16,665 nt of DNA from Oligoflexales bacterium. Lineage in GTDB: Bacteria; Bdellovibrionota_B; Oligoflexia; Oligoflexales; Bog-1112. The notes beneath the pieces were generated by a model that was not told the DNA's origin, did no database searches, and saw only the letters and a list, made by a program, of their open reading frames with translations. Of this stretch, positions 309 to 16,665 are shown piece by piece. The stretch lies in assembly GCA_045105515.1 (NCBI GenBank), contig JBGCDR010000128.1:1-16665 (forward strand). The letters run 5' to 3'. How positions within the stretch are numbered: the first letter of the stretch is position 1; every line of letters starts with the position of its first letter. Made by a program: the position numbers and the translations under genes.

Positions 309-521
309 ATGCCTTTATACTTTCGCTTGATGCTCGGTATGTCTCCTATCGTTCTTATTTTTCATGCTGAAATTAAGGGTATTAGGTTAGAACACCAGCG
401 TTTAAACAGCATGCTAGAGGAAGTGGTCCGTAACACTAAGGAGATTAAATGCCGGCTACCAGTGCGTCCACTCCCCCTACAGCAAATACATAGAGGAACT
501 TCAAATGCAGCTCCATATTGA
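309..521 (+). CDS. Hypothetical small protein (hydrophobic N-terminus plus coiled coil), possible lysis accessory
   Basis: 70 aa with AAGGA upstream. Fills the gap between neighbouring + strand genes and overlaps the next start. No family recognised. Confidence 0.4.
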   Translation: MPLYFRLMLGMSPIVLIFHAEIKGIRLEHQRLNSMLEEVVRNTKEIKCRLPVRPLPLQQIHRGTSNAAPY

Positions 522-1248: not shown

Positions 1249-1384
1249 TGCCTCTTAAAATGATAAGTCACTGTAAATACGCAGCTTCACAAGTTCAGCA
1301 GGTACAATACAGCTGTTTTGCAAGCAGGCAGCATATAAAGGGGGGAGTGATGCCTTTTGTGGGGGTAAACACCTATAAAAACAT

Positions 1385-1435
1385 AGGTTCTTCCTTTCTA
1401 AGGCGCACTATCCGCAGCCAAGTCCAACGGTTTTC
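1385..1435 (+). other. Candidate lambda-type cos packaging site (cosQ-like/cosN-like)
   Basis: AGGTTCTTCC...GC-rich core...CGGTTTTC, ~75 bp upstream of terS. Resembles lambda GGGTCCTTTCC...GGGCGGCGACCT CGCGGGTTTTC in order and approximate spacing. Confidence 0.4.
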
Positions 1436-1507
1436 CAAAGATTTTCATTTTTGGCCTAGGTGCATGTTGTCTTCTTGGTAACTCTCTAATTTATAAGGAT
1501 TAAAAAG

Positions 1508-2029
1508 GTGAAAGATAGAGCAAGCAATATGATTGCATTAAGCAAGAAAAATGCAGGAAAATTACCCGACTATACAACAGCTACCGAGGTTGCGCGCGTA
1601 TTCGAACTCGATCCGAGAACGGTGAGAAAAAGGATAGCCGAGCTCGAAGCAAAGCACAGCGAGGGTAACAATAAGTTCTTTGATACAGCCGAAATCCTCA
1701 GGTTCACTTTGCTCAATAGCCCGACCATGCAGGACAACGTTGAACTTGACTTAACTCAAGAAAGGGCAAAGCACTACCGGACCCTGACCAAGAAAACTGA
1801 GATCGAAATCGAAAAGCTCTCGGACAAGTACATGCTGGTTGGGGATGTTGAGGAAAACATCAAAGGCAAGTTTATGAAATTCAGGCAAAAGCTCCTTATC
1901 ATTCCAGGGAAAGTTGGGAAGGAAGTTTTGAACGAAACTGATTTAAGAAACGTCAAAGACATATTGAAAGATGCTATCGAAGAGGCCTTGGTTGAATTAG
2001 CAACAGGCAGCGAAGATGATGGAATTTAA
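1508..2029 (+). CDS. terS: Terminase small subunit, Nu1/DUF1441-like
   Basis: N-terminal winged HTH (TATEVARVFELDPRTVRKRI) followed by coiled coil (LTQERAKH...EIEIEKL). Overlaps the start of terL. Start could be GTG 1508 or ATG 1529. Confidence 0.85.
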   Translation: MKDRASNMIALSKKNAGKLPDYTTATEVARVFELDPRTVRKRIAELEAKHSEGNNKFFDTAEILRFTLLNSPTMQDNVELDLTQERAKHYRTLTKKTEIEIEKLSDKYMLVGDVEENIKGKFMKFRQKLLIIPGKVGKEVLNETDLRNVKDILKDAIEEALVELATGSEDDGI

Positions 2030-3941
2030 TGAGCTACTGAGAAGAAAAACTAAAAAAAGGTTCTCCTCTTTTGATTCACTCTTAGCACCACCACCTAAGC
2101 TCACAGTGTCAGAGGATGCAGCTAGGCATAGGAATATTTCATTAGAGGAATCCGCAAAGCCTGGCAAATGGGTTAGCTGGCCTTTTCAAATCGAAATGCA
2201 AAACGTCTATAACGAAAAAGGCGTACAGCTTGCTGTCTATATGACCGCATGTCAGGTAAGTAAGACCGTTCAGGAGCTAAACCTGATCAGCTACTTCATC
2301 AAGTATGAAAACGGCGGCATCAACTTTATGCTACCAACAAAAACCATGGCGGAGGACTATTCACAGGTTCGTTTTGATTCTATGGTCCGTGATTCCCCTG
2401 CACTCGCAAAGATCCTACCTCCTACAAGGTCAAAGGGAAATAAGACGCTCTTTAAAAAATGGGTAGGTGGCTATATACGATTTATCGGATCTGAGAACGC
2501 CAACGACGTCTGTTCCTTCGCGACTGGAAAGGTCATTATAGACGAGGCAGATCGCTGCAGCTTGGTCGTTCGTAACTCCAAAGGAGAGATCGAGGGCAAC
2601 ACTTTACAGCTATTATTTAAGCGTATGTCCACCTTCGATGATAAATTTGTCCTGATGGCATCGACTCCCACGACCGTTGAAACTTCAATCACTTGGGAGT
2701 ATTTTCAAAAGTCTGATCAAAGGCACCCTCATATACCCTGTCCTCACTGCGGTTATTATCAGTTCCTAGACTGGAATAATTTCACTTGGCAAGGAAAAAA
2801 TCCCAATGATTTTAATACCGTTTTTTCTGACGATTTAGACTCCTTGCTAGATTCCTTCTGTTATGCCTGTCAAAGCTGCAACAAAACTTTTAAAGACTCT
2901 GAGCTTCCCCTCATGCCCGATAAATTAGAGGTAAAATGGCATAAGCATAATCCAAAAGGCCGCTTCCCAGGCTTTCATATCAATCAGTTTTATACAAACG
3001 CATGGAAGGGTCTGTTTGAAGAGTACTTATCCTGTGGGCAAAACCAAATCAAGAGGATGTCTTTTTGGAATACGGTTCTAGGGCTTCCCTTTAGCTTTGA
3101 AGGTATCAAGGTTCCCGATCATAGCATCCTGATGGAAAGACCTAAGTACTACGAGAGAAGTTTCGTTCCAAGTCCAGCTTGCGTACTCCTTGCAGGCTGC
3201 GATGTCCAAGATGACCGGGTTGAGATCGTGGTAGCAGCAGTTAACAGAAGGCAAACCTACGTCGTAGACCATGCGGTTTTTTATGGCAATCCTGCAAACC
3301 CTGAGTCTGAATGCTGGGAGAACCTTAGGGACTACGTGTATAAGTCATGGCAGACAGAAAGTGGCCAGCAACTTTATATTCTGGCGGCAGGGATAGACTC
3401 AAGACACCGCAAGGACACAGTAGTACGTTTTGCCAAGAAAAATAGGGTTTTTATCCCGGTTACGGGCTCCCCAAGTGTATGGGACATGCAGCTTCTAAGC
3501 CCGCGCAAGGCTGAGGTTAACCAAAATGGCAGGTGGTTTGAAATTGATGTCCTGCGCTTTCCCTTGGGCGTAAACTTGCTTAAGATGGACCTGTATGGTC
3601 GTTTAAACCTCTCTCAAACGAAGAAGCAACTCCGTGACAACGAATACCCCTCTGACTGGATACACTTTCCTAAAGACCTCTCTGAGGGATTCTACAAGCA
3701 GCTTACCGGCGAGGTCTTGGAGGTCAACGAAGACGCTAGAGGAAAGACCAAGAAAAATTGGCGTAAGCAGTACACGAACGTAGAGATCCTCGACTGCATG
3801 GTTTATATCCTGGGCATTTACCTCATTAAGTCTCTGAATGACTGGTCGGATGCAAGATGGGGAGCGGAAGAGGCTAAGATAGGCCTTGGCAAAAGCAAGG
3901 AATCTGAGCAATCGAGTCCGATTATCGGGTCGATGATTTAA
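2016..3941 (+). CDS. terL: Terminase large subunit, lambda GpA family
   Basis: 641 aa. PGKW..WPFQ adenine-binding region, Walker A-like ACQVSKT, Walker B VIIDEADR, motif III ASTPT, Zn pairs CPHC/CQSC, GFHIN, nuclease motifs AGCDVQDDRVE, GIDS and EILDCMVY. Confidence 0.95.
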   Translation: MMEFNELLRRKTKKRFSSFDSLLAPPPKLTVSEDAARHRNISLEESAKPGKWVSWPFQIEMQNVYNEKGVQLAVYMTACQVSKTVQELNLISYFIKYENGGINFMLPTKTMAEDYSQVRFDSMVRDSPALAKILPPTRSKGNKTLFKKWVGGYIRFIGSENANDVCSFATGKVIIDEADRCSLVVRNSKGEIEGNTLQLLFKRMSTFDDKFVLMASTPTTVETSITWEYFQKSDQRHPHIPCPHCGYYQFLDWNNFTWQGKNPNDFNTVFSDDLDSLLDSFCYACQSCNKTFKDSELPLMPDKLEVKWHKHNPKGRFPGFHINQFYTNAWKGLFEEYLSCGQNQIKRMSFWNTVLGLPFSFEGIKVPDHSILMERPKYYERSFVPSPACVLLAGCDVQDDRVEIVVAAVNRRQTYVVDHAVFYGNPANPESECWENLRDYVYKSWQTESGQQLYILAAGIDSRHRKDTVVRFAKKNRVFIPVTGSPSVWDMQLLSPRKAEVNQNGRWFEIDVLRFPLGVNLLKMDLYGRLNLSQTKKQLRDNEYPSDWIHFPKDLSEGFYKQLTGEVLEVNEDARGKTKKNWRKQYTNVEILDCMVYILGIYLIKSLNDWSDARWGAEEAKIGLGKSKESEQSSPIIGSMI

Positions 3942-5557: not shown

Positions 5558-5610
5558 AGGGTGTCGTGAAATACGACGACCTTTAGACGACCTCGTGAAA
5601 CGCGGGGTCA
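5558..5610. repeat. Copies 2 and 3 of the TCGTGAAA-centred imperfect palindrome/hairpin
   Basis: GTCGTG-AAA-TACGAC (5563-5577) and GACCTCGTG-AAA-CGCGGGGTC (5589-5609). Confidence 0.8.
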
Positions 5611-8600
5611 TCCTTTACCCCAATGCCTTGAGAAGTGACCGTCGACTCCCATCTTTACACCAGGGCAGTAATGCTTAGCCGCCCCTATCATTAGCTGGTC
5701 TACTCGCTTAGCCTCTTCCTCAAAGTTTTTCTCATCCACTTGCACGACAAACTCGTCATGCACAACACACGGAACCTCAAAGCCGTTTCGAGTGAGGTTA
5801 AACCAGGCGCTGTTTGCAATATCAGAGAGCAAGCCTTGGAATGGAGTGTTGTTAAACTCTGTGTAAGAGCAGTTAGCTCTAATCCTCCCTGACCTTGGGA
5901 GCACAGCAGTAAGAGAGTTTTTAAGAGCTTTTACAAACTGAATGTTAGGCTTCCTAGCATCCACGCTCTTTTTATAGGCTTTAAATTTATCGTATTTGGC
6001 TACAACAGCAGCAGCATTTTCCCAGGCCCAGTCTACCTCTTTTTCACCATATTCTCTGTCGGTCGTTGCTGTTCCCGAATAACCTTCAAGCATCCTGAAG
6101 AATCCGTGTAGGGCCGCGCCATTTGGGAAGTTGCAAGGGTGCTCTATTAATAGAAGCTTCTTAGCAAGCTGCTTATCCGACTCTTCAAGGTATAGCTTCA
6201 TCTCAGGAAAGGACTGGAGCCATGCTTCTTTAATAGCCTTCGCTTGCTGCTCGTTAATCGTGACTCCATAGGAATCCCTGGCGAAATCAACCAGTCTCTT
6301 AAACCCCAATCCACCAGGCAAACCAAAGTTGGCGATTTTCCCGTATTGGCGTTCCCCTTTAGAGACCTGATCCACAGGCTTACCAAGAAACCTGGAAGCC
6401 GTGAGTTTATGCACATCCTGGCCCTGGTTAATCGCATCACTAAGCTTACTAAAGCCATACCTATCAAGGCATACCTGGGCAAGGGTCACTAGTTCGGCTG
6501 AGCTATAATCAGCTATATAAAGGGTTTTCCCCTCACTTGCTATAAGCTGGGCTCTCATATCCACGAGGTCCTTTTCCCTTGGGATCTGCTGGAGGTTAGG
6601 CTTACTCATAGCATTACGCCCAGTATTTTTGAGGATACTTATATGCGGGTGAATCCTCGTCACCTTCTCAAGGGGGGTAACACTCATCTTAAGGAGCTTA
6701 TTGTTGTGCTGGCGTTCTTGCCAAAGGTCAAGGAACTCAATGCCTTTAAATGGCTTTAAAGCTGCCTTTTTCTGGCTGATCATCTCCTTGCCTGTCACAC
6801 CATCTAAGAACCTAGGGAAGCGTATATTCTGTTCAGCTTCTATATTTTCCATAGCCTTATTAAAACGCTCTTTTTGCCCCTTGCCGCCTGCATAGTCGTA
6901 TTTTTCAAGCAGGGTTTGATCGATCTGTTCAAGGCGATTTCTGAGAATAGCACCGTTTTCCTTAGCTTTTTCTGTATCAACTCTAAAGCCTAAATTAGAG
7001 GTATTAAAGGCCGCTAGGGCATCACCAACCTGCACAAAATGGCTGAGGAGTTTGGATTCATCGAGCCCATGCTTGGCAACAATGTTCTTAGCCTCAAACT
7101 CCAACTTGCTCCATAAGAAATAAGTCGCAATAGTATCGAAGGCATTGTAGTGAAAATAGGCGGCTGGTGCCTCTTTTATGCGACCAAGGTAATCACCATA
7201 GGAAGTCCTTACCTCCTTACCATCAACCTCTGCTTCTTTTGGGAGAGTAATATCAAGTTTGTCTTTGCACAGGGTTGCTAAGGTGTACTTGCCCTTTTTA
7301 TTCTCTGCATCTCCCTCAGTTGCAAGATTGATAAGTCTTGCTAAAAGCCAGGTATCCAGGCCTTTTTTCTTAGCTGCCTGCTCTAATCCCCACTGCCTAT
7401 TGTGGATCTGATTACTCAAGGTCATAAAGTCAAAGGCAATATTGTGAGCAATCCAGTTTGAGTGCTCATGGGTCTTTGCAAACTCTTTTAGCTGATGTAC
7501 CTCGATGAAAAATAGCTCCTTACCATTAAACGCTGAAGCTAGGACTATCTGAGGGATGTACCCTCCTTCGATTAGCTCCGTCTCTACATCGAAGGAAAAA
7601 TTCTTTCCTAAGTTCTCACCTGACCACCATTTGGAGGCGTAGACCTTACCCTTAAGTTTATAAATAGGTAGATCCTTTAAGGGAGTATCCCAGTTTTCCG
7701 CCGGACCCTCTGGACCCTCATCAATAATAAGGGTCCGGTCTATTTCCCCTGTATTTACATTATCTTTAAGCTCTTCAGAAGCAATTATGGACCCTTTTAA
7801 CCCTCTTTTAGAGGAGCCAGAATTTTTTCCCGAAATTTTTTTTGCATCCGAATTCTCAAGAGGGTCTAAAAACCCCGAAAGGGTCCGGCGGTCTTTGTAA
7901 GATTCTGTTTCTATTTCTGAATTCGCTCGGACCCTTTTTACCCCAAGGGTCCGGCAGGGTCCATCGGAGGGTCCGGCTGGAAGATTAGAGGAAGAAAGCC
8001 TGAATAAATAGTCTCTCGAATTCCCTCCCACCTTGCCTGGAACGGTGTCTACAGTAATTTCAACTTCGTCTTCGTCCTCTGTGATATAGGGGAAGGCCTT
8101 CCCTTTCATCTTTCTGAGGATGTTTCCCACCTTCGTATTCTTACCTTGTGGCCGAGGCGTATCACGGAAAAACTTCGGATTGATCTCCTCAGCTTTTGCC
8201 CTCCATTGTTTTGCCGGTGCTGCTTCAGTCTCAGTTGCTCCAGTACGGTAAAGCTCCTCACTTCCGACATCGAGCATAAGAGAAATATCTGGACTTAGCT
8301 TGCCGAGAATATCTCTGTAGTTTGATAGGAATCCGTTAAATCCATTGACCTTCAATATGCCGTTCACGAAAGCTGCCCACTTTGGGTACTTAGGAAAGTG
8401 CACATTTTCTTTAGGGCAGCCTGCTTTTTGCCAATTTAGGACAAGACCTAGGAGTTCTGAGAGAACTGCATTTCTATTCTGCTTCACGTAAGCTAATGGG
8501 TTTGCGTCCTTTAGCTTTCTTTCATGAGCAAGCTCTATGGTAATCGATCGAGTCAGCAGGTCATCACAGATAACCCCATCATTTAATGTTGCAAAAAACT

Positions 8601-10356
8601 GAGCATTATTCCGTCTTTTGAACATCTCACTTTGGCCCAGGATTCGAGTCTCAATAAATTCTTCGGTTAAGATTCCTTCAAGACTTGAGCTAGTTATTGG
8701 TTGTGCCGTGCGAATGTTATCCAAACAAATAAAGTCACTATTTTTAGAGGATGCACCTATCCTTTTCTCAAGCTCAAGATCATCATGGGTATAGGTAACC
8801 CGTGAATAGCTAGCTCCACTTGCTACATAAGAGCATGTTTTTGCAAGAGTAGATTTACCAAGGTTAACCTTATTGCCTAAAACAGTTCCGAGAGGGTGTT
8901 CACCTACGAACTGCTCGCGCAAGAAAACGCAGGTCAGTAGAAGGCCAAGGGCATTTGAGAACTGAGAATCATCCTTAAACGGAAAGTCTAATACTTCCCG
9001 CAGATGCTCCATAGAAAAAGAGGGGGTGAGCTTGGGACCGTCGTAATATATGCGAGAGTCTTTATCATAACCTCGGTCATAAATCAGTTTATTCCCTGAA
9101 ATAACAGGACATTTGGTATAAAGAGTGATCTTATCAAGATTGGCATATTTTTCCATTTTGGTCAGAAAAGCGCTACCTATTTCACTGGGTATTAACTGAT
9201 GATTGATAGACATATCGAAGCCAATAGCTTTTTTAGAGGCCTTAATAAAATCTATTTTATCTGACATATATGCAGCGAAATCTTTACCATCAGGAATCCT
9301 ATTTAATTGCTCACGATTGATATAAGCTAAGTTGTAGGTTCCATCTTCGATGTAAATCCGATCCTTAGAATCAAGGCACCTACCAACCTTCGTATATAGT
9401 TCTCTTGTTGAGTCTACATGCGGGAGCCAAAAAATCTTTGCAAACTTGCTTTCCTCTTTTGGCATCTGGCTGTAGAAAGCCTTTTTGATCTTAGTAAAAA
9501 GCCCCTTGATATCTTTAAAGCTGCTACTTGGGTAAGACTTAGCAAGAGCTTTCAAAAGCTGAGCCAGTTCAAACTCTTCAAGGAAAATTGCACTCCTTAA
9601 GTATTTGTCGAGGCAGTCCCTGCCAATCTCTTTTGGTATGTCCTCGTGGTCAGCCTTGCCAAATTCCCAAAAAGGCTTATCACTTCGGCGTTTTAATTCC
9701 TCGTATCCTTTTTTAATCAGGAAATCATCGGCTCCAATCTTTTCATCACCAAGCCTCAAGTCAACAATTTTTACTTCTGCACCCATCTGGTGTATGGTGC
9801 GCACAAATTCGAGGATACCCTTATTGACCTGCGGGTTAGTGAAAAAATCGCTATCCGGATAGACGGTTACTGGCCTATTTTCCATGGGAATTCCACCCCA
9901 TCCTTCGCCTAGTCCTTCGCTATCTTTTTCCTTCCAATTGCGGCACCCAGGAAAGCCGATGCATACGGCATCCTCACGATCACGTTTTTTTTCACAGGAC
10001 TCATTAAAAGCTTCAAGTTCAGCCCTGAGCTTAGCGACTTTCTTCTCACCCTCTGTGACCTTTAACTCGACGTCTTCATCTTTAAGATCAGTAGCATCAT
10101 CCTTATTAAAATATGAGGTGAGGGAAGAGCCTTTTTCCTGAGCGTACTTAACGTCACCTACTGGCTTCTCAAGCTTAAGCCTTCCCCCTACTTCGTTTCC
10201 GTCTAGATCGTGATAAGGAAAATAAATCCCCTCAACATCAAAGTTAAAGCGCGCCTTTACATCTTCAGCGCTCAGACTCTTGATACCAAAAGCTTCAACA
10301 TCTTCCTTACTTAATCCACTCTGCTCTAGTAATTTAATATGTTTATCAAGAATCAT
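5608..10356 (-). CDS. Fused primase (Toprim, DUF3854-like) / P-loop helicase-like / 3'-5' exonuclease / family A DNA polymerase
   Basis: Toprim: GIYFPY, KYAQ, VTEGEKK, YPDSD, GADDFL. NTPase: NLGKST, ICLDN, FATLN. Exo I/II/III: FDVET, AHNIAFD, YNAFD. PolA: TGR...PNLQQIP, motif A ADYSSAEL, motif B RQYGKIANFG, NTPFQG, motif C VHDE. The ORF track starts at 10434; ATG 10356 (MILDK, 1582 aa) is preferred because it couples to the upstream stop. Confidence 0.92.
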   Translation of the reverse strand: MILDKHIKLLEQSGLSKEDVEAFGIKSLSAEDVKARFNFDVEGIYFPYHDLDGNEVGGRLKLEKPVGDVKYAQEKGSSLTSYFNKDDATDLKDEDVELKVTEGEKKVAKLRAELEAFNESCEKKRDREDAVCIGFPGCRNWKEKDSEGLGEGWGGIPMENRPVTVYPDSDFFTNPQVNKGILEFVRTIHQMGAEVKIVDLRLGDEKIGADDFLIKKGYEELKRRSDKPFWEFGKADHEDIPKEIGRDCLDKYLRSAIFLEEFELAQLLKALAKSYPSSSFKDIKGLFTKIKKAFYSQMPKEESKFAKIFWLPHVDSTRELYTKVGRCLDSKDRIYIEDGTYNLAYINREQLNRIPDGKDFAAYMSDKIDFIKASKKAIGFDMSINHQLIPSEIGSAFLTKMEKYANLDKITLYTKCPVISGNKLIYDRGYDKDSRIYYDGPKLTPSFSMEHLREVLDFPFKDDSQFSNALGLLLTCVFLREQFVGEHPLGTVLGNKVNLGKSTLAKTCSYVASGASYSRVTYTHDDLELEKRIGASSKNSDFICLDNIRTAQPITSSSLEGILTEEFIETRILGQSEMFKRRNNAQFFATLNDGVICDDLLTRSITIELAHERKLKDANPLAYVKQNRNAVLSELLGLVLNWQKAGCPKENVHFPKYPKWAAFVNGILKVNGFNGFLSNYRDILGKLSPDISLMLDVGSEELYRTGATETEAAPAKQWRAKAEEINPKFFRDTPRPQGKNTKVGNILRKMKGKAFPYITEDEDEVEITVDTVPGKVGGNSRDYLFRLSSSNLPAGPSDGPCRTLGVKRVRANSEIETESYKDRRTLSGFLDPLENSDAKKISGKNSGSSKRGLKGSIIASEELKDNVNTGEIDRTLIIDEGPEGPAENWDTPLKDLPIYKLKGKVYASKWWSGENLGKNFSFDVETELIEGGYIPQIVLASAFNGKELFFIEVHQLKEFAKTHEHSNWIAHNIAFDFMTLSNQIHNRQWGLEQAAKKKGLDTWLLARLINLATEGDAENKKGKYTLATLCKDKLDITLPKEAEVDGKEVRTSYGDYLGRIKEAPAAYFHYNAFDTIATYFLWSKLEFEAKNIVAKHGLDESKLLSHFVQVGDALAAFNTSNLGFRVDTEKAKENGAILRNRLEQIDQTLLEKYDYAGGKGQKERFNKAMENIEAEQNIRFPRFLDGVTGKEMISQKKAALKPFKGIEFLDLWQERQHNNKLLKMSVTPLEKVTRIHPHISILKNTGRNAMSKPNLQQIPREKDLVDMRAQLIASEGKTLYIADYSSAELVTLAQVCLDRYGFSKLSDAINQGQDVHKLTASRFLGKPVDQVSKGERQYGKIANFGLPGGLGFKRLVDFARDSYGVTINEQQAKAIKEAWLQSFPEMKLYLEESDKQLAKKLLLIEHPCNFPNGAALHGFFRMLEGYSGTATTDREYGEKEVDWAWENAAAVVAKYDKFKAYKKSVDARKPNIQFVKALKNSLTAVLPRSGRIRANCSYTEFNNTPFQGLLSDIANSAWFNLTRNGFEVPCVVHDEFVVQVDEKNFEEEAKRVDQLMIGAAKHYCPGVKMGVDGHFSRHWGKG
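7700..7977. repeat. Cluster of AGGGTCC(GGC) repeats in both orientations, candidate intragenic replication origin
   Basis: Nine exact AGGGTCC/GGACCCT copies start at 7703, 7712, 7730, 7789, 7880, 7929, 7946, 7956 and 7968, plus AGGGTCT at 7861, interspersed with A/T tracts. The repeats are certain; the origin function is inferred. Confidence 0.75.
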
Positions 10357-10699
10357 ACTCAACCTTTGCTCTCTCTTCTGCAAGCCCATAAGGCCCACAG
10401 ATATGCATCTCAATGTAAAAGTGTGGTGTACCAAGTGATCTATAAGCTGAGATAAGACCCTTTTTACCCTTCAGCTCGTAGATGGATTTTGCGATGATTT
10501 TAATTATTTCGATAAACTGTGATTCTAAGTCGCGAGAAATACAAAGGTGCTCAGAAGACAAAAATTTATTTACGCTTTTTAGTAGCTTTCTTAGCCACTT
10601 CAAAGTATAAACCTGCCTCATAAACTGATTTTTAGCTGGTTTGTAAAAGAATCCAGCTACGCCTGTTTGCACCAGGCGTTTCTCCAATTCTACTATCAT
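10346..10699 (-). CDS. Hypothetical protein (early region)
   Basis: 117 aa with GAGAGGA SD. Co-directional and tightly packed between the Cro-like gene and the replicase. Confidence 0.65.
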   Translation of the reverse strand: MIVELEKRLVQTGVAGFFYKPAKNQFMRQVYTLKWLRKLLKSVNKFLSSEHLCISRDLESQFIEIIKIIAKSIYELKGKKGLISAYRSLGTPHFYIEMHICGPYGLAEERAKVEYDS

Positions 10700-10716
10700 A
10701 ATATCCTCTCATTAAA

Positions 10717-10941
10717 TTATGCAGCTCCATTCAAGCTACTTTGTTTGTCTATAAAATCTTCCATAGCCTTTCTTATTTTTTCGCGATAAGTCTTGTTTGG
10801 GATGTTAAGATCCTTCCATTCATCCATCCGTTTTTTAGGAATACCGGCATGCTCAAGGATAAGCTCTTCGAGAGTAATAGTTCCTCCCATAGCTTCAAAT
10901 TTTTGTAGCATCAAATCCCAGTACTCATTTGGCGTAAACAT
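10717..10941 (-). CDS. Small XRE/Cro-like HTH DNA-binding protein
   Basis: 74 aa with strong AAGGAGG SD. TLEEL...AGIPKKRMDEWK...P..TYREKIRKAM fits the Cro/cI-type HTH pattern. Lies upstream of replication genes. Confidence 0.55.
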   Translation of the reverse strand: MFTPNEYWDLMLQKFEAMGGTITLEELILEHAGIPKKRMDEWKDLNIPNKTYREKIRKAMEDFIDKQSSLNGAA

Positions 10942-10981
10942 AACCCCTCCTTATTAGCTCACCTCGATCTAATAAAATCCT

Positions 10982-11362
10982 TCAGCTTGCTTGGTTGATC
11001 ATGAAAGCGGTTAACCTATCACTCATATCCCTTAGCCTTTGGTAGCTACTAATAAGGACATCCTCCGGCATCTGGAACCAAAGGGAGGTTTCACGAAGTA
11101 TTTTTTTTACCTCTAGAATGTCGATTGGTACGAAGCCTGAGCTTTGCATTTGATAAGAATTACAGACAAAATCCTTGATTGACCGACGATACCTTTGAAC
11201 CTGCTCCTCAAAATACAGGCATTCACGTTTTACTTTTGATAGTTGTCTACTTTTACTCTTCATTTTTAGCACCATATTTAAAATCTGAATCAGGGATCTT
11301 GTAGTTAATAAGGATGATTTTTCAACGTATTCTTCTGTAATTATGAAGAATATTGAGGACAA
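10982..11362 (-). CDS. Hypothetical protein; start uncertain (TTG 11362 or a downstream ATG)
   Basis: 126 aa ORF, first gene of the leftward arm. GAGG/AAGGA lies just upstream of the TTG. Predicted helical, no family recognised. Confidence 0.5.
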   Translation of the reverse strand: MSSIFFIITEEYVEKSSLLTTRSLIQILNMVLKMKSKSRQLSKVKRECLYFEEQVQRYRRSIKDFVCNSYQMQSSGFVPIDILEVKKILRETSLWFQMPEDVLISSYQRLRDMSDRLTAFMINQAS

Positions 11363-11437
11363 TCCTTACCTCGGTATTTTGATTCCAGTTGACTAGATTT
11401 ACCTACCAGGCTTGAAGTAAAGGTAAAAGTAAATTGA

Positions 11438-11463
11438 TCGGTCAGAAAAAAAAACCTGACCGA
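11438..11463. promoter_or_regulatory. Perfect inverted repeat TCGGTCAG-N10-CTGACCGA, candidate operator in the divergent control region
   Basis: 8-bp arms seen directly, spacer AAAAAAAAAC, inside the AT-rich intergenic region 11363-11556 between divergent HTH-encoding operons. Confidence 0.65.
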
Positions 11464-11556
11464 AATGTAAACTACGAAAATTCTTTAAAAATGATATATA
11501 AGGTACGAACTACTAATGTTGATAATTTCAGATGAAATAATTGGGCAAGTCAAATC

Positions 11557-12057
11557 GTGAATGAAATAAAAGATAAAATAAAGCACTTTCTACTTCAAAA
11601 AGATAAGCAATATGTCAATGCAATAAAAAATAACCAGACACCTCCTTCTATGAGTCAAATAGCCACAAATTTAAGCCGAAAATGTAATGTGGGAGTCCGT
11701 CGTTTAAGAAAATATCTAAGTGAGTCTCCCACGGATTTATCTATTTCTTTGGAAGATCTTCAGAATTTTTCGGATTTAGCAGGGCAAAATATAAGTTCTT
11801 ATATCGCATACTTATACGATGAGAAACTTGACTCGTCACTTAATCCACGCCAAATAAGGCTAATAGATTTTTTTGACAGGGTGCACCTAAGTCTTCGGCG
11901 TGAGCTGAATTTGACAATTTTCTCAGATAATGATGTTAAAAAAAGCGAAAAAATACTTGAGTTGCTGCCATGCTTATATAAACTTCAGCAAGTGGACATT
12001 GAGGTCATTGCTCATATTATCGAAGCTTTTAGATCAAAAAGCGAAAGGAATAAATAA
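11557..12057 (+). CDS. Putative XRE-like HTH regulator (cI position)
   Basis: 166 aa. LSRKCNVGVRRLRKYLS...ISLEDLQNFSDL resembles an XRE HTH. Divergent from the Cro-like gene. No S24 peptidase motifs seen. Confidence 0.5.
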   Translation: MNEIKDKIKHFLLQKDKQYVNAIKNNQTPPSMSQIATNLSRKCNVGVRRLRKYLSESPTDLSISLEDLQNFSDLAGQNISSYIAYLYDEKLDSSLNPRQIRLIDFFDRVHLSLRRELNLTIFSDNDVKKSEKILELLPCLYKLQQVDIEVIAHIIEAFRSKSERNK

Positions 12058-12326
12058 TGAAGAAGAAATATACACTAGCGGCAGTTTTCATTTCTCTTTT
12101 ACCCGTTTCTAATAGTTTGTTCGCCAAGAAAATAGGTTATCTAAGTGCTAAAAATAAAGGAAGTATATCGCTCTTATTAAGCACCATTTCTTCAGCGTTC
12201 TCCCCTTCTTTTGGTATGGAGTCGCTAATGCTTGATCAAGATATTACATCAAAAGCGCTTTGCGCAACTAACGACACCACAGGTGGCGGTGGTGGCGGTA
12301 CAGGTGGCGTTTGTAGTAGTGAGTAA
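12057..12326 (+). CDS. Small secreted-type peptide, candidate RiPP/signal precursor
   Basis: 89 aa. TAATG overlap with the upstream stop and AAAGGA SD. Sec-like signal MKKKYTLAAVFISLLPVSNSLFA. C-terminal CATNDTTGGGGGGTGGVCSSE. Same operon as YcaO. Confidence 0.7.
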   Translation: MKKKYTLAAVFISLLPVSNSLFAKKIGYLSAKNKGSISLLLSTISSAFSPSFGMESLMLDQDITSKALCATNDTTGGGGGGTGGVCSSE

Positions 12327-12354
12327 AAACAATTAAAACTCTCAGGATAAAATA

Positions 12355-13956
12355 ATGATTAGATGCCCAGTTCTCATTCGTCTTTTTATAGGTTTGTATA
12401 TTTGTTTTTCATACGAAAAATCTTCAGCAAACTCGAATTTATCTGATTTAGAATCGAAAGCTAAGTTAATATTAGATAAAAATGAACCCACTCTCATCAA
12501 CACAGTGTCGGGAGTATTTGGTTCTTTTGACCCTTTAGATGCTGATTATACTAAAAATATTAGGGTTATGAGATTATTGTATTCAACTCCTGTTGAAAAG
12601 GATGAAAATGGTAAACTTAGCTCTTCTATTTTAGATAGATTTGAGTACAACGAAGTCTTAAAAACTCTAACCTTTCAACTAAAGTCAGGCTTAAATTTTA
12701 GCGATGGTTCAAGTATAACATTAGATGATTTGAAACTGTCCATCCTAAGAATGCTCCACGAGCGACCTACATTTGATCCCCTTAAATATATTGAAGGTAT
12801 TGATAAATGGCAGGCTCACGGGAAAAAATTAGACACCTTACCTTCTGGGTTATCGTTGAATGAGAAGACTAGAACGTTGACAATCAAGTTATCTCAACAT
12901 GTAAACCACCCTTTTGAACGTTTTACGATGGAAATATTCTCCGTAATTCCCAAAAAATGTATTGATACAAAGTCAGCGAAGATGATTTGCGCAACACCGC
13001 CTTTTTCAGGAGATTATACACTTGAAGAGAATGATTCTCCATTTTTAAAATTTAGAAAAAGAAGCTCAAATAAAAATATTCCTGACAGGTTAAATATAGT
13101 ATTCATGTCTCCAGTTAGAGTTATCAAGTATTTAGAAAATTTTAGATCGAATCATGTAATCTTATCGAATGAAATAGATATTCCTCCAGAACATCGCTTC
13201 TTTATAAAAAGTAAATTTAGGGACAATAGTATACCTGAAGTAAGGTTTTTTGCATTGGTTCTGAATAAACGAACCAAAACATTTGAGAATAAAAGAGTAA
13301 GACAATATTTTGCTAAAGAGTACCGATCAACTCTTAATAAATTATTTGGCAGGGAAGATGGAAGCATCTTCACACAAATAAGTCCTGGCTATATATCATT
13401 AGGAGATCTTTATGATAAAGCCGGGAATTTTTCAAAAAAAGAAGAGCAAGAGATAAGAAATCATTTAAAAACTCATCCCCCAAAATGGATGAAAAATAGC
13501 TTCGCAAACCATGACCCTTTCCAAATATATCTTAAAGAAACATTAAAAAGGTTGGGTATTAGTGAATCTCCAATCCTTCCAGAAAAAGATAGAAAAAAAG
13601 AGATGGAACTTTGGAAAAAGGGGGAATTTGATATTAGACCAACCCACTCTGGCTTGGATACTAATGACCCAACTTTAGACCTTAAAATGTTATTCACAAA
13701 AAACATGCATTACTTTTTGATTGACTTACAGGATGACATCCACCTGCAACAAATGCTTGGCTCAATAAATCATACTCAGGTAAAGAAAATGGATATAAAT
13801 CTACTGAAAAAAATAAATCAATATCTGTTTGAAGAGTCAGTATTTTCAATTGTCGCAAATTACTCGATAGGTCAATACACGCTGAAGGATAGCAAATTAA
13901 AATTTACAAATGTATATAAGACCAACTCAGCACATTATTTCATCAATACTCCATGA
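12355..13956 (+). CDS. Family 5 (OppA/DppA-like) extracellular solute-binding protein, orphan
   Basis: 533 aa with a signal-like N-terminus. FDPLDA, LLYSTPV, TLTFQLKSGLNFSDGSSITLDDL (family 5 signature region) and PPFSGDY (GTGPY-like). No permease or ATPase adjacent. Confidence 0.88.
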   Translation: MIRCPVLIRLFIGLYICFSYEKSSANSNLSDLESKAKLILDKNEPTLINTVSGVFGSFDPLDADYTKNIRVMRLLYSTPVEKDENGKLSSSILDRFEYNEVLKTLTFQLKSGLNFSDGSSITLDDLKLSILRMLHERPTFDPLKYIEGIDKWQAHGKKLDTLPSGLSLNEKTRTLTIKLSQHVNHPFERFTMEIFSVIPKKCIDTKSAKMICATPPFSGDYTLEENDSPFLKFRKRSSNKNIPDRLNIVFMSPVRVIKYLENFRSNHVILSNEIDIPPEHRFFIKSKFRDNSIPEVRFFALVLNKRTKTFENKRVRQYFAKEYRSTLNKLFGREDGSIFTQISPGYISLGDLYDKAGNFSKKEEQEIRNHLKTHPPKWMKNSFANHDPFQIYLKETLKRLGISESPILPEKDRKKEMELWKKGEFDIRPTHSGLDTNDPTLDLKMLFTKNMHYFLIDLQDDIHLQQMLGSINHTQVKKMDINLLKKINQYLFEESVFSIVANYSIGQYTLKDSKLKFTNVYKTNSAHYFINTP

Positions 13957-14846
13957 TAGACTTAATAAAAAAATATTATTACTGCTATCTACTTGAAAGT
14001 ATCAGGAATTCGAGATTCCCTCCTAAAAAGGAACAAATGCAGTCGTTTGGTTCATTGTTTATCAGTAATCTTGCGTTTGCAAATAATTTCAACACTGCTA
14101 TTTCTGAGGACGTTGCTTCAGGAGTATCTAACACTCATCTGGAAGCATTCGCAAAATCTATGTCGGAATATGTAGAAAGAGTTGCATTTAGAGAAGGAAA
14201 GAAGAACGGTCAATCGCTATGTCAAACTAATAGAAGTGAGGGATTTGCAGCTTATCCCTACTTGTCTTTTAATAAAAATAAAGCGCTTGATCTAGTAAGA
14301 GAAATTTCTTTGTGCGAAAGTATTGAAAGATTCTCATGGCCATATTTTTGGTCTGACAAATCAGTCAAGTTTGAGGTGCAGGATTGTAAAAAATCAACCC
14401 TAAACGAGATCAGCAACCTAACTGGAATTGCAAGTATCCAACATGTTTTTCCTGCTTTAAATAGCGATAAGGTTTTGTGTATATCTATCGCTAAAATAGG
14501 TTCCCAAGGTGCTATTTTAGGGGCTAGTTGCTCGAATGCTAGGAGTAGTGCTATCACAGGGTCTATTCATGAGCTTATAAAGCATTACATTGGCTTAAAA
14601 AAAATAAACGGCTATACAGTTATAGAATCAGACTACATAAAAAGACTTCACCATTTGTCTAAAGTAGGATTTTCGCTTTATCAAGAAAGACTATCGTTTA
14701 AAGGTACAAATACAATTCATTTACCAAGCCTAGAAATGGATGGTCTTGTAACCCATCCCTTCGATCGATATTTTCTTGTTTACAGAACGAGATTTAAAGA
14801 TCAAGTGGAATTTATTTCAGAATCTTTAAATCTCGGATATATATAG
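13953..14846 (+). CDS. YcaO-like ATP-dependent peptide backbone-modifying enzyme (short, stand-alone)
   Basis: 297 aa. SGVS...EAFAKSMSEYVER (Sx3Ex2ER), RSEGFAA (SNGxAA-like), SLCESIER and LGASC...AITGSIHEL occur in YcaO order. ATGA overlap with the upstream gene. Confidence 0.8.
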   Translation: MIDLIKKYYYCYLLESIRNSRFPPKKEQMQSFGSLFISNLAFANNFNTAISEDVASGVSNTHLEAFAKSMSEYVERVAFREGKKNGQSLCQTNRSEGFAAYPYLSFNKNKALDLVREISLCESIERFSWPYFWSDKSVKFEVQDCKKSTLNEISNLTGIASIQHVFPALNSDKVLCISIAKIGSQGAILGASCSNARSSAITGSIHELIKHYIGLKKINGYTVIESDYIKRLHHLSKVGFSLYQERLSFKGTNTIHLPSLEMDGLVTHPFDRYFLVYRTRFKDQVEFISESLNLGYI

Positions 14847-16469
14847 ATGTACGGTAAACTAACCCCCAAAAAAACTATTATTCTAATTGCGATTATTCTT
14901 CTTTTAATCTCATATATTGGAATCGATTACCATTACAAAACTAGATCCAAGGACATACTTTTAAGTACCATCCACGCCTCGGAAGATTTAATCAAAGTAA
15001 ATAATTTTTTGGAGTTTTCGTCTAACCTGCATTCAGCTATGATAAATCAGCCCATAATAAAATCGACGTCACTTTTTGACGGAGATTACCGAAGACTGTT
15101 TCACTATGGTGAAGATTATCGTATAGAAAGACTCGATATCAACTTTTCAGAAGATAAAGTTCTTATACTTAATGAAGGAATCCTAAAGTACGCATTAGTT
15201 TATAATTTCCCTACAAAATCAAACTTTATTCTAGTTTGCTCGTTTTATGATGATAACCGATATATAATCCTGTTCTCACTTTTTTCAGCCATATTTTTAT
15301 CATTTGGGGTTATATTTTTAGTTTGTACTCGCTTTGATATCGATAATCTAAATGCTTCTGCTGCAAAACAAGCTATTGGAATGATTTCTCTTGGTTTTCA
15401 TGAAATGAAACAATACGTGGCATTCACAAACGAACTTTTTAAGTACATTCAAAGCGGGAAAAATGATGCAATTAAAGAACAAATTTTTCTCAAAGATTAC
15501 AGGCATCTCAACATCGGTGTTGAATCTATGATGTCAATTATCAATATTAAAAATTATGAAAGTTTCGAAAATAAAAAGGAAGTTACAAAAAAAAATAATG
15601 CTGTTGAATTAAACGAAATTGTAAATAGTTGTGTCGAGTCCTACAAAAAAAAAGGCGTTAAATTTGAGTACATCCAAAATCATAAATGTCTGTTGTTGAT
15701 TAGAAAAGATGTTCTTTACGCTATAGTAGGTAATTTGATTAAAAATGCTTTTTTCTTTTCAAATAGGTTAGTTTGGGTAACTACGGAAGAAAAGGAAAAT
15801 TCACTTGCCATATCTGTTGCAAATACTGGCAAAAAAATACCGAAAAAGAAAAGAAAAGAAATTTTAAAACCTGGAATCGCTTTAAATGGCCAGTCTGGTT
15901 TAGGGTTACATATATGTAATTTATGGTGCGAAAAAATCAATGCTCAAATTCTCTTAGAGAGCACATCAGTTGCAACAGAATTTAAAATAGTATTCCCTAA
16001 AAAGTTGATTTTAAAAGAGCCAAACGTCTTGTGCGCTACTGAAGATATACCGAATTTTTCTGAAGTGAAAAGCGATGTTCAAATTATCAAGAAATCGATT
16101 GATTTAGCTGTTATTGATGATATTGAAACATTTAGGATTGGCTTAAAATCTGAATTAACCGAACTTGGATTTAATGTATTGACCTTTGAAGATATAGACA
16201 TGTTCCTAGATTCTATACAGGAAGGAAAAGTCAATTTTGATTGTGTTATCGTTGATAGACATGGAAAAGGGTTCGACGCTGCTAAAGATCGTTTCCCGGA
16301 ATCTTGCAAATATTATAATTTCAAAGGAAAAATAATATTGTACTCATCAAATGTAGAAGAACATCAATTGGAATACTACAAAAGTCTAGGCTTTGACAGC
16401 ACAGTTTCAAAAAGTGTTTCAGTTGATTGGAAGAATGAGATACACTCGATTTTGAAATGTGGTAAATAA
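14847..16469 (+). CDS. Membrane-bound hybrid sensor histidine kinase with C-terminal receiver domain
   Basis: 540 aa. Two TM helices flank a ~110 aa extracytoplasmic domain. H-box GFHEMKQ, N-box GNLIKNA, G1-like ANTGKKI, G2 SGLGL. Receiver VIDD...IVDRH...LYSS...VSK. Confidence 0.92.
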   Translation: MYGKLTPKKTIILIAIILLLISYIGIDYHYKTRSKDILLSTIHASEDLIKVNNFLEFSSNLHSAMINQPIIKSTSLFDGDYRRLFHYGEDYRIERLDINFSEDKVLILNEGILKYALVYNFPTKSNFILVCSFYDDNRYIILFSLFSAIFLSFGVIFLVCTRFDIDNLNASAAKQAIGMISLGFHEMKQYVAFTNELFKYIQSGKNDAIKEQIFLKDYRHLNIGVESMMSIINIKNYESFENKKEVTKKNNAVELNEIVNSCVESYKKKGVKFEYIQNHKCLLLIRKDVLYAIVGNLIKNAFFFSNRLVWVTTEEKENSLAISVANTGKKIPKKKRKEILKPGIALNGQSGLGLHICNLWCEKINAQILLESTSVATEFKIVFPKKLILKEPNVLCATEDIPNFSEVKSDVQIIKKSIDLAVIDDIETFRIGLKSELTELGFNVLTFEDIDMFLDSIQEGKVNFDCVIVDRHGKGFDAAKDRFPESCKYYNFKGKIILYSSNVEEHQLEYYKSLGFDSTVSKSVSVDWKNEIHSILKCGK

Positions 16470-16484: not shown

Positions 16485-16532
16485 GTTTTGTCGTCAGATA
16501 CTACGCACCTGACAATGTCCAAACGACAAAGC
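16485..16532. other. Nested inverted repeats just after the kinase stop (possible terminator-like structure or binding site)
   Basis: TTTGTCGT (16487-16494) pairs with ACGACAAA (16523-16530). GTCAG-N11-CTGAC lies at 16493-16513. A T-run follows at ~16544. Confidence 0.4.
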
Positions 16533-16665
16533 CCCCACCCCTCTTTTTATAGACTCTTTTGCAAGCAGCATAACAAGAGCTATGGCACTTATCCTATAAA
16601 GAGCTTTTAAAACAAGATGGAGCCAATTGGGTTTGTACTTGTTCCCGAGTTCCAATTCTACTGTT

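Follow-up and report, generated by a model that had tools for sequence, protein, structure and literature searches.

What does a YcaO-like protein do in one operon with an oligopeptide-type binding protein and a membrane histidine kinase, beside the replication genes of a phage-like element? This question is raised by a contig of an Oligoflexales bacterium (JBGCDR010000128.1, assembly GCA_045105515.1), analyzed here over a stretch of 16,665 nt, hereafter the window. The ORF map of the window contains five tightly coupled, co-directional plus-strand ORFs, spanning positions 11557-16469, and the following features:

505..3941, plus strand: phage late genes
505-1248, plus strand: tail-completion/neck-like late gene
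1508-2029, plus strand: small terminase
2016-3941, plus strand: large terminase of the gpA type (GpA_ATPase, E = 1.8e-47; GpA_nuclease, E = 2.3e-49)
5608..11362, minus strand: leftward early/replication arm, three small ORFs and a 1608-aa fusion
5608-10434, minus strand: DUF3854/primase-DNA polymerase A fusion, 1608 aa (PF00476, E = 3.4e-36; PF12965, E = 1.1e-5)
10346-10699, 10717-10941 and 10982-11362, minus strand: small ORFs of the replication arm
11363..11556, no strand: divergent intergenic region between the leftward replication and rightward cassette operons, an immunity-region-like position
11557..12057, plus strand: gene 1, 166 aa, cytoplasmic, first ORF of the operon
12057..12326, plus strand: gene 2, 89-aa small secreted protein, precursor candidate
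12355..13956, plus strand: gene 3, 533-aa family-5 solute-binding protein (SBP; PF00496)
13953..14846, plus strand: gene 4, 297-aa compact YcaO-fold protein by predicted fold and motifs, cytoplasmic
14847..16469, plus strand: gene 5, 540-aa membrane histidine kinase (PF02518)
16494..16664, minus strand: 3' end of a gene running off the contig, convergent with the cassette

The initial annotation had described five coupled genes transcribed away from a replication arm, and both points held: the minus-strand small ORFs and the primase/PolA fusion lie on the left, and the ORF coordinates and all four junctions read as claimed (TAATG at 12055-12059 between genes 1 and 2; a 28-nt gap, 12327-12354, between genes 2 and 3; ATGA at 13953-13956 between genes 3 and 4; and the TAG of gene 4 at 14844-14846, followed by the ATG of gene 5 at 14847). 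We consider it very probable that this operon is a signaling cassette, and it is best read as the phage- or phage-plasmid-borne copy of a widespread Bdellovibrionota sensory module.

The identity of gene 4 is central to this reading. This ORF encodes a protein with no hydrophobic segment, and its structure model (pLDDT 95.9, pTM 0.93) was compared with the 48,161 chains of VIA. The top five matches were all solved YcaO structures (Z = 19.7, 18.1, 17.7, 17.1, and 15.6), among them McbD (19.7), LynD (17.7), and archaeal thioamide YcaOs (18.1 and 17.1); the best covered 258 aligned residues at an rmsd of 3.3, and the first match after the YcaO proteins had a Z of 7.3. With Foldseek, the 20 matches listed at E ≤ 0.005 were all YcaO chains (best E = 4.7e-8) and include all those listed among the 23 matches with E ≤ 0.001. 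The protein carries two ExxER motifs (E72/E75/R76 and E122/E125/R126), whose acidic residues we take to be the ATP/Mg ligands of YcaO. Across 129 sequences, E72, E75, E125, and E207 never vary, and at least 90% of the sequences retain R76, E122, and R126; the order of motif 1, an xGxAA strand, and motif 2 is that of relatives aligned to Pfam positions 102-271. Searched alone, gene 4 stays under the gathering cut-off of PF02624 (E = 0.1, 12.3 bits against 25.7). Within its family, 99 of 129 members match this profile at E ≤ 1 (best E = 1.3e-8), and the relatives that pass the cut-off (L057, 41.3 bits; L063, 35.8; L013, 26.2) carry canonical SNG...ExxERD signatures. The YcaO call of the initial annotation is thus upheld by fold and family profile, though not by Pfam on the window protein alone, and by its modeled structure gene 4 is a YcaO superfamily member with the YcaO fold.

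Two subclasses were considered for this protein, and the markers of neither were found. Azoline-forming cyclodehydratases have a C-terminal PxPxP motif; the gene 4 C-terminus has no such proline motif (the main family group has only a Q-P-P-F stretch), and no E1-like/Ocin-ThiF protein or fused RRE was found in the window or 90 neighbor proteins. Regarding the thioamide-forming subclass, no TfuA or sulfur-transfer genes were found among the Pfam matches of the same proteins.

Gene 4 shares the YcaO fold and the two ExxER motifs with microcin B17 McbBCD, cyanobactin LynD, and the TfuA-YcaO thioamidation systems, but at 297 aa it falls about 100 residues short of the solved YcaO domains (362-396 aa). 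As in YcaO RiPP systems, a small ORF with a Gly/Ser/Thr/Cys-bearing C-terminal tail lies directly upstream in the cassette. In contrast to those systems, the operon has no RRE/E1-like or TfuA partner, dehydrogenase, dedicated (ABC) exporter, or leader peptidase by Pfam and NCBIfam; its small protein sits in a two-component operon and carries a Sec signal peptide, which is unusual for a RiPP precursor. As there is no dedicated exporter, export would go via this Sec signal peptide.

This small protein is the product of gene 2, whose start overlaps the gene 1 stop codon and follows an AAGGA at a distance of 8 nt. It consists of an N-terminal signal peptide (signal peptides were called throughout by a rule of our own) followed by a C-terminal tail. 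It has two relatives (82 and 64% identity), both of which conserve the signal peptide and the tail and apparently share two contigs (5489 and 5578 nt) with the closest YcaO relatives. Cysteines 69 and 86 of the tail are invariant, and could simply form a disulfide. As a gene identity, the small precursor-like secreted protein that had been proposed is supported.

To place gene 2 in the wider family, we counted signal-peptide ORFs of 40-150 aa ending at most 90 nt before the start of an SBP or YcaO gene. Such an ORF lies directly upstream in 37/45 loci as compared to 3/182 control genes, the controls being other genes of at least 250 aa within the same loci; under this rule, 8/45 YcaO loci have no small ORF. 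In most loci the small proteins have 107-139 aa and are fast-evolving, and an alignment of 16 of them shows no invariant or near-invariant position other than Q and D in an [S/T]-Q-D motif at the C-terminus. The arrangement of a RiPP cluster, a precursor-like gene with a conserved core adjoining the enzyme gene, is seen in the 37 loci, mostly with [S/T]-Q-D as the core, and in the window, with its conserved tail. In place of [S/T]-Q-D, the window tail has Thr-Asn-Asp, a glycine run, and two cysteines, so the membership of gene 2 in this tail family rests on intermediate forms. An azoline-forming YcaO is reported to recognize long folded nitrile-hydratase-like leader peptides (PMC12455567); the likeness is one of layout, with a protein-like N-terminal part of about 90 aa and a short core, whereas the small proteins of the cassettes have a signal peptide at the N-terminus and an [S/T]-Q-D core.

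The small ORF also accompanies YcaO outside the full cassette. On contig C181 of the same genome, a 43-aa secreted peptide ends 1 nt before the start of a lone YcaO-like gene, and its same-genus counterpart likewise has a 43-aa secreted peptide so placed; neither locus holds an SBP or a kinase. At locus L013 the small ORF sits between SBP and YcaO. No such ORF was found in the YcaO-less paralogue cassettes C23/C119, C28/C329, and G020:C39, the exception being the YcaO-less cassette L102, which has a small secreted ORF with a Gly/Cys tail. Taken together, this distribution suggests that the small protein probably goes with YcaO rather than with the SBP.

The assignment of gene 3 as a family-5 SBP was borne out (SBP_bac_5, E = 1.3e-15). 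NCBIfam gave weak NikA/OppA-type matches, all far under cut-off, and residues 1-19 form a hydrophobic N-terminal signal or anchor. This SBP is an orphan: the window holds no permease or ABC ATPase gene, and no BPD_transp or ABC_tran match was found by Pfam in the window or in 90 scanned neighbor proteins. The adjoining gene 5 had been described as a hybrid kinase, of which the kinase part stands (HATPase_c, E = 1.5e-9); the C-terminal receiver is weak (Response_reg, PF00072, E = 6.9e-5, 23.4 bits, under the 30.2 cut-off), as are the hybrid-kinase matches in NCBIfam, also under cut-off, and HisKA, present in kinases of related cassettes, was not found in gene 5 by Pfam. Hydrophobic segments at residues 3-30 and 138-166 enclose an outside loop of about 107 aa. 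An orphan SBP adjoining a two-TM kinase that has an outside loop, with no transporter genes, is the arrangement of a binding-protein-dependent kinase sensor. In LuxP/LuxQ, TorT/TorS, and AioX/AioS/AioR, a histidine kinase receives its input from a binding protein in the periplasm, and GltB-GtrS is reported to be another three-component sensor of this kind. The cassettes resemble LuxP/LuxQ-type sensors in these features, often with a sigma-54 regulator, and differ in that a family-5 SBP, a YcaO, and a small secreted protein are joined in the operon.

Gene 1 might encode a regulator of the Cro/CI (XRE) type that carries an additional C-terminal half, an assignment that we treat only as a lead. 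The earlier HTH_XRE call was not confirmed by HMM, as no Pfam or NCBIfam family, HTH_XRE included, matched at E ≤ 0.01. The structural lead remains: all ten listed Atlas structure neighbors are HTH_3/HTH_31 clusters, at a TM by query of just 0.33-0.42. In addition, gene 1 matches an HTH_3 protein within the L012 cassette (pairwise E = 0.002), and its paralogues adjoin SBP/kinase genes on contigs C23, C28, and C329. In the lambda cI-rexAB immunity operon, the repressor gene comes first, diverges from the early operon, and shares its transcript with cargo genes. The likeness of our operon is one of position, with gene 1 first, divergent from the replication operon, and cargo downstream, although gene 1 is only a candidate repressor. 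Because the operon starts with gene 1 at this immunity-operon place, the cassette would be co-expressed with a repressor-like gene. Promoter-like matches in 11363..11556 showed no excess over shuffles.

Is this gene combination peculiar to the window? A lack of co-occurrence of the small ORF, SBP, YcaO, and kinase elsewhere had been named beforehand as refuting the initial reading, yet the same gene order (small protein-SBP-YcaO-kinase) was found in about 50 loci of other genomes. The YcaO-like family comprises 272 representative proteins at E ≤ 0.001 in the protein library, and its full-length members among the 150 listed have about 280-340 aa. Within the phylum, the YcaO-like proteins of 25 loci, the SBPs of 22, the kinases of 23, and the sigma-54 regulators of nine clustered into single families. 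On 30 further Bdellovibrionota contigs, three of which coincide with contigs of own-phylum loci, YcaO is followed by the kinase in 30/30 cases and preceded by the SBP in 26/26 with flank. The YcaO and SBP families each occur in 26/131 genomes, 22 of them common to both; as the loci are related to each other, the locus counts overstate independence. In nearly all of these 30 loci the YcaO gene overlaps that of the kinase, an arrangement equally consistent with a partnership of the two proteins. Long chromosomal contigs (e.g., a 779-kb contig of G014) carry most of the homologous cassettes, and the module is mainly chromosomal, widespread in Bdellovibrionota, and not phage-specific. In keeping with the initial annotation, we found no description of this combination in the literature, and family members are publicly named "hypothetical protein."

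The copy in the window likely lies inside a phage-like element. The 1608-aa fusion matches phrog_17 DNA polymerase (E = 4e-56), the late genes match phrog_57 terminase small subunit (E = 2e-18) and phrog_27 (E = 3e-6), and the terminase matches 526 phage records. The right flank, which comprises only 56 aa of one gene, has a 344-aa homologue in the C28 phage-plasmid (65% identity over 48 aa, E = 1e-19), with 90% DNA identity over 90 nt to C28:5338-5427 and a depth 3-6 times higher at 16494..16664. Both cassette flanks share genes with the C28 phage-plasmid of the same genome, which supports the phage association that had been claimed, though not phage-specificity, given the mainly chromosomal module. 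There is, however, a real if less than even chance that the link is incidental, the cassette being bacterial cargo (a moron or captured chromosomal module) that affects host behavior at most and has no role in phage decisions, or the contig joining a prophage end to host DNA. The chromosomal location of most homologues agrees with this, as do the fall in GC content at the arm/cassette junction (42.7% in the phage arm, 33.0% in the operon, 38.3% in the genome), the position of the closest paralogue cassette, C23, beside an elongation-factor-like gene, and searches of IMG/VR (two pattern sets) and INPHARED, in which the module was not found. Against it speak a 10,052-nt contig from another assembler that bridges 5782-15833 at even junction depth, the C28 homologue of the right-flank gene, which also adjoins an SBP/kinase/gene-1-like cassette, between ParAB and replication genes, and two other loci, L014 and L063, that have phage genes beside the cassette.

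How might the cassette work? Our proposal, which we hold at somewhat less than an even chance, is that a YcaO-tailored, Sec-exported peptide is sensed by the SBP and kinase, in a phage immunity-type operon. The compact YcaO would act in the cytoplasm, using ATP to modify the backbone in the C-terminal tail of the gene 2 product; this product would leave via its Sec signal peptide, possibly being trimmed outside, and the orphan SBP would bind the tail or a tail fragment in the periplasm and switch the two-TM histidine kinase. Output would run through the kinase receiver domain and the Cro/CI-like gene 1 in the window, and through a sigma-54 regulator instead of gene 1 in most relatives. Such an operon could make the element or its host responsive to a peptide signal, and might serve quorum sensing.

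That the small protein is the ligand of the SBP falls just short of being probable in our judgment, and two other readings bear on it. The SBP might sense an outside ligand (exogenous peptides or another solute, prey-derived for predators) and switch the kinase, with the small protein as a periplasmic accessory or tethered competitor and YcaO in a side role. We consider this rather unlikely, as it leaves unexplained both why about 50 loci have a YcaO between SBP and kinase and why the small ORF lies beside a YcaO that has neither; yet oligopeptides and nickel are among the solutes bound by family-5 SBPs, in line with the NikA/OppA-type matches of gene 3, related YcaO-less SBP and kinase cassettes exist and presumably work, and an invariant [S/T]-Q-D is unexpected for a diversifying pheromone epitope. 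It is less likely still, and in our view improbable, that YcaO modifies a protein of the pathway (the kinase, the SBP before export, or the regulator) or is an ATP-dependent partner of the cytoplasmic part of the kinase, the small protein not being its substrate. The YcaO/kinase start/stop overlaps, the TAG-ATG adjacency in the window, and the lack of an RRE or TfuA partner in the window and 90 neighbors would fit, and YcaO enzymes act on whole proteins, as reported for McrA thioglycine/thioamidation (PMC5589413) and a ribosomal protein (PMC13063428). Against this, the lone C181 YcaO has only the small secreted peptide upstream, and the C-terminal motif is conserved within an otherwise fast-evolving small protein.

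The proposed peptide circuit also invites comparison with arbitrium (AimP/AimR/AimX), the phage communication system in which a cytoplasmic RRNPP/TPR receptor senses the unmodified AimP peptide. Both have a small secreted precursor and a presumed receptor on a phage-like element near a regulatory region, but the receptor of the cassette would be extracytoplasmic (SBP and kinase), its peptide is probably enzyme-modified, and most copies are chromosomal. An arbitrium-type system was rejected for the window, since no TPR or RRNPP family was found in any of its proteins by Pfam, NCBIfam, or phrogs. It is unlikely that the cassette steers lysis-lysogeny. Somewhat less doubtful, though still speculative, is that it represents the first YcaO-tailored, Sec-exported peptide autoinducer circuit, a separate type of signaling system native to predatory Bdellovibrionota and captured into a phage-plasmid immunity-type operon, where the element would make or overhear the signal and time its maintenance, induction, or host behavior accordingly.

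If the proposal is true, YcaO chemistry, familiar from antibiotics, toxins, and cofactor-like modifications of proteins, would also serve to produce a signal sensed by the same operon. Few peptide-based signaling systems are known in Gram-negative bacteria; the SBP and kinase circuit would join them in a predatory phylum in which little is understood of how cells sense each other and their prey. With the whole circuit carried on an element beside a repressor-like gene, phage communication would also reach beyond the cytoplasmic receptors of the arbitrium type. The family, with its 272 representative clusters, is large and has no named member, and the invariant [S/T]-Q-D and glutamates offer direct experimental handles. 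Should the peptide not be the ligand, the superfamily still has a tractable new branch in this compact 300-aa YcaO and its defined partners.

The five ORFs of interest are co-directional and coupled, as the initial annotation had observed, with junctions at TAATG (12055-12059), a 28-nt gap, ATGA (13953-13956), and TAG followed by ATG (14844-14849). The window is an entire 16,665-nt contig (C128) from a genome bin of 461 contigs, and the features discussed here are:

11557-12057, + strand, gene 1, ORF for a candidate regulator
12057-12326, + strand, gene 2, ORF for a small secreted protein
12355-13956, + strand, gene 3, ORF for a solute-binding protein (SBP)
13953-14846, + strand, gene 4, ORF for a YcaO-like protein
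14847-16469, + strand, gene 5, ORF for a histidine kinase
16494-16664, - strand, partial ORF matching the end of a C28 protein of 344 aa at 65% identity (E = 1e-19); C28 is another contig of this genome

The operon is divergent from a minus-strand arm in which three small ORFs are accompanied by a 1608-aa fusion of primase and DNA polymerase A, and to the left of this replication arm lie a small terminase, a gpA-type large terminase and a tail-completion-like gene. The fusion is a single ORF (5608-10434, - strand) that combines a DUF3854 (Toprim-like) primase part and a family A DNA polymerase with a central stretch that has matches to phage replication families. The GC content is 33.0% in the operon, 42.7% in the phage arm and 38.3% in the genome; the drop from about 43% to about 33% falls at the divergent region (10900-11600). 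Promoter- and terminator-like matches in the window showed no excess over shuffles. A tRNA and Rfam search of the window found none, and therefore there is no tRNA-type attachment site there.

The proposed YcaO identity of gene 4 holds by fold and family profile, but the single protein has no Pfam match. Searches with this sequence alone gave no family match in Pfam, NCBIfam or PHROGs, and phmmer against PDB sequences was also empty. The gene 4 profile matched only the YcaO MJ1094 among PDB sequences (E = 0.011), and, when 1.84 billion representatives were searched with a profile, 272 relatives were recovered at E ≤ 0.001; of the 150 matches listed, those of full length measure about 280-340 aa. 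PF02624 (YcaO) was touched at E ≤ 1 by 99 of 129 aligned family members (best E = 1.3e-8). A first fold, from a 4-row alignment, had a pLDDT of 40.5, and the model from the 129-member alignment reached 95.9. All 20 Foldseek matches listed for the gene 4 model at E ≤ 0.005 were YcaO chains, and the top five of an all-against-all structural search were YcaO proteins (McbD, Z = 19.7; M. kandleri, 18.1; LynD, 17.7; M. jannaschii, 17.1; E. coli, 15.6), followed by the next row at Z = 7.3. The alignment contains four invariant residues (E72, E75, E125 and E207) and three nearly invariant ones (R76, E122 and R126); the conserved residues correspond to two ExxER motifs flanking an xGxAA strand, in an order that agrees with relatives above Pfam's cut-off that align to the YcaO model core. 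Comparing gene 4 with E. coli YcaO by hhalign produced a single weak, local match (probability 14.9%), which was not used for residue mapping because it cross-matched the two similar motifs. Together, the fold, the structural matches and the ExxER motifs identify gene 4 as a compact YcaO that is about 100 residues shorter than solved domains and retains the acidic site. The protein has no hydrophobic segment and is therefore expected to be cytoplasmic. At two loci, the YcaO-like gene is split between two ORFs (L056, 5281-6170; L097, 2800-3865), either frameshifted or decaying.

The domains expected in the other genes were recovered unevenly. Gene 3 is, as proposed, a family-5 SBP (SBP_bac_5, PF00496, E = 1.3e-15) with a hydrophobic N-terminus. 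The gene 5 kinase contains two segments that are hydrophobic, at 3-30 and 138-166; HATPase_c was found in it (E = 1.5e-9) and HisKA was not detected; a receiver domain was matched, but at 23.4 bits, under Pfam's 30.2-bit cut-off. The helix-turn-helix anticipated in gene 1 had no match in Pfam or NCBIfam. All ten structure neighbours listed for gene 1 in the Atlas are HTH_3 clusters, with modest TM, and gene 1 aligns weakly (E = 0.002) to an HTH_3 protein inside a related cassette, which gives a Cro/CI-type fold as a lead.

Pattern scans based on a 4-row gene 4 alignment were empty for viral, genome and metagenome contigs alike. The genome scan with a 14-row alignment, covering one genome per species, found 30 loci in the order regulator, small ORF, SBP, YcaO and kinase, which bears out conserved synteny. 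All belong to Bdellovibrionota bins (Bdellovibrionales, Pseudobdellovibrionaceae, Bacteriovoracia and Oligoflexales), and three of their contigs coincide with loci of the own-phylum set. The kinase follows YcaO in 30/30 of these loci and the SBP precedes it in 26/26 with flank. Across 131 genomes of the window's phylum, the YcaO-like family and the SBP subfamily each occur in 26, 22 being common to both. Within the phylum, clustering of the loci's neighbours gave single families of YcaO-like proteins (25 loci), SBPs (22), kinases (23) and sigma-54 response regulators (9). A simple sigma-54 consensus had no match within 420 nt upstream of the SBP genes, a result that carries no information, since the operon begins farther upstream in those loci. 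In public records, both the YcaO-like proteins and the small proteins are entered as "hypothetical protein".

Two other functions were considered and set aside. Nutrient uptake was rejected as the SBP has no accompanying permease or ATPase genes, none being found among 90 neighbours scanned or in the window. A defence system was rejected because PADLOC matched no defence family at all among 10 window proteins, including the five operon products. Some cassettes have neighbours that may be processing, oxidation or uptake partners: a nitroreductase-family protein (L060, 6297-7157), a radical SAM protein (L050, 11434-12783), a TonB-dependent receptor (L049, 9429-12302) and, immediately upstream of the small ORF, a secreted trypsin-like protease (L019, 7078-7923; L054, 7927-8832). 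Directly downstream of one chromosomal cassette, L012 (12665-15854, contig G014:C2) encodes three paralogous proteins of about 320 aa with prepilin-type N-terminal methylation motifs.

A small ORF was defined as one of 40-150 aa, on the same strand, ending at most 90 nt from the SBP or YcaO start, with a signal peptide by a hydrophobicity rule of our own. By this rule it accompanies 37 of 45 YcaO loci with flank versus 3 of 182 other genes of these loci that encode 250 aa or more; several of the eight YcaO loci lacking it narrowly miss the rule. When 16 small proteins (107-121 aa) are aligned, invariance or near-invariance is confined to the Q and D of a C-terminal [S/T]-Q-D motif, 5-12 residues from the end; elsewhere, identity falls to about 20%. 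Small proteins of the window's own order have shorter, more diverse tails, in which Thr/Asn/Asp is followed by glycine runs, some with cysteine pairs; forms joining T-Q-E with a glycine run also occur. The gene 2 tail is of this kind (Thr/Asn/Asp and a glycine run), and the signal peptide, this tail and two cysteines are conserved in its two relatives, at 82% and 64% identity, which apparently share contigs with the closest YcaO relatives.

The partner of the small protein can be approached through incomplete cassettes. In front of a lone 277-aa YcaO-like gene of the same genome (G000:C181; L011, 9365-10369) and of its same-genus counterpart (G001:C397; L010) lies the ORF of a secreted 43-aa peptide, which stops one base short of the YcaO start; no SBP or kinase is nearby. 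This peptide has a Thr-rich, Gly-ended tail, and the genes next to the YcaO-like gene have type IV pilin-like N-termini. In L013, the small ORF is placed between the SBP and YcaO. No small ORF was found in the YcaO-less paralogue cassettes of C23/C119, C28/C329 and G020:C39; one is present in the YcaO-less L102, and two further loci are cut by contig ends. In this small sample of related members, the observations favour a pairing of the small protein with YcaO over one with the SBP. A complex prediction for the L076 SBP and its small protein scored 0.01 (mark, 0.32), which gives no verdict either way on binding.

The reading that we favour, at somewhat less than an even chance for the whole chain, is that YcaO would act in the cytoplasm to alter the small protein's tail, Sec would export the protein, the SBP would bind it or a fragment of it, and the kinase would pass the signal on, here to gene 1 and in most relatives to a sigma-54 regulator. 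An invariant motif amid variable flanks is more readily explained as a place where an enzyme acts than as an epitope read by a receptor. According to PMC12455567, an azoline-forming YcaO recognises long leaders, and the small proteins resemble the leaders described there in having a protein-like N-terminal part ahead of a short core. A sensor of an outside ligand, with the small protein and YcaO as accessories, is an unlikely alternative to this chain, in which the small protein is itself the ligand. It is more improbable still that YcaO targets the kinase or another pathway protein, in the way that YcaOs act on McrA (PMC5589413). The peptide-signalling interpretation of the initial annotation is partly supported.

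Its phage association is supported for the window's cassette, which has element genes on both flanks. Most cassettes are chromosomal, and none was found in IMG/VR or INPHARED, including by the 14-row pattern scan of viral contigs and by a tblastn search with gene 4 in INPHARED. In three runs of one study, which may be the source, a different assembler's contig covers 5782-15833 of the window without difference and at even depth; the phage arm and the cassette are therefore truly joined. Depth is 3-6 fold higher over the last 0.8 kb of the window. C28, whose 344-aa protein is matched at the right end, is phage-plasmid-like (ParA/ParB, a 1124-aa primase-type replication protein, exonuclease VIII/RecT/RusA, terminases, portal, capsid, baseplate and sheath) and carries, between partition and replication genes, a YcaO-less SBP/kinase/gene-1-like cassette that adjoins the 344-aa gene (L098, 1-20000; L099, 1-20000). 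Its gene-1-like ORF is also divergent from replication genes. With the C28 homologue on the right and the replication arm on the left, the window's cassette therefore has element genes on both flanks, in matching order. C329 holds a near copy of the C28 cassette. At two loci in other genomes, the cassette likewise adjoins phage genes, namely those for a Rha regulator and for tail-completion-like proteins. That most cassettes are on long chromosomal contigs counts against a phage-specific reading, as do the empty IMG/VR and INPHARED searches and the lower GC of the operon (33.0%), and an incidental phage link is a plausible, if somewhat doubtful, explanation. The large terminase had no match in viral contigs, and the window contig has no terminal overlap of the kind that would indicate a circular molecule. 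A second variant of 287-2190, covering neck and terminase genes, occurs in the runs' contigs at roughly equal depth with about 30 single-base differences; these genes seem common to at least two related elements. The bin contains five more large-terminase relatives (C213, C33, C442, C83 and C28).

The initial annotation did not recognise the combination as a described system, and full-text searches of papers open without subscription gave no account of the module. The module represents known parts in a new combination, one that is widespread, unnamed and experimentally approachable.
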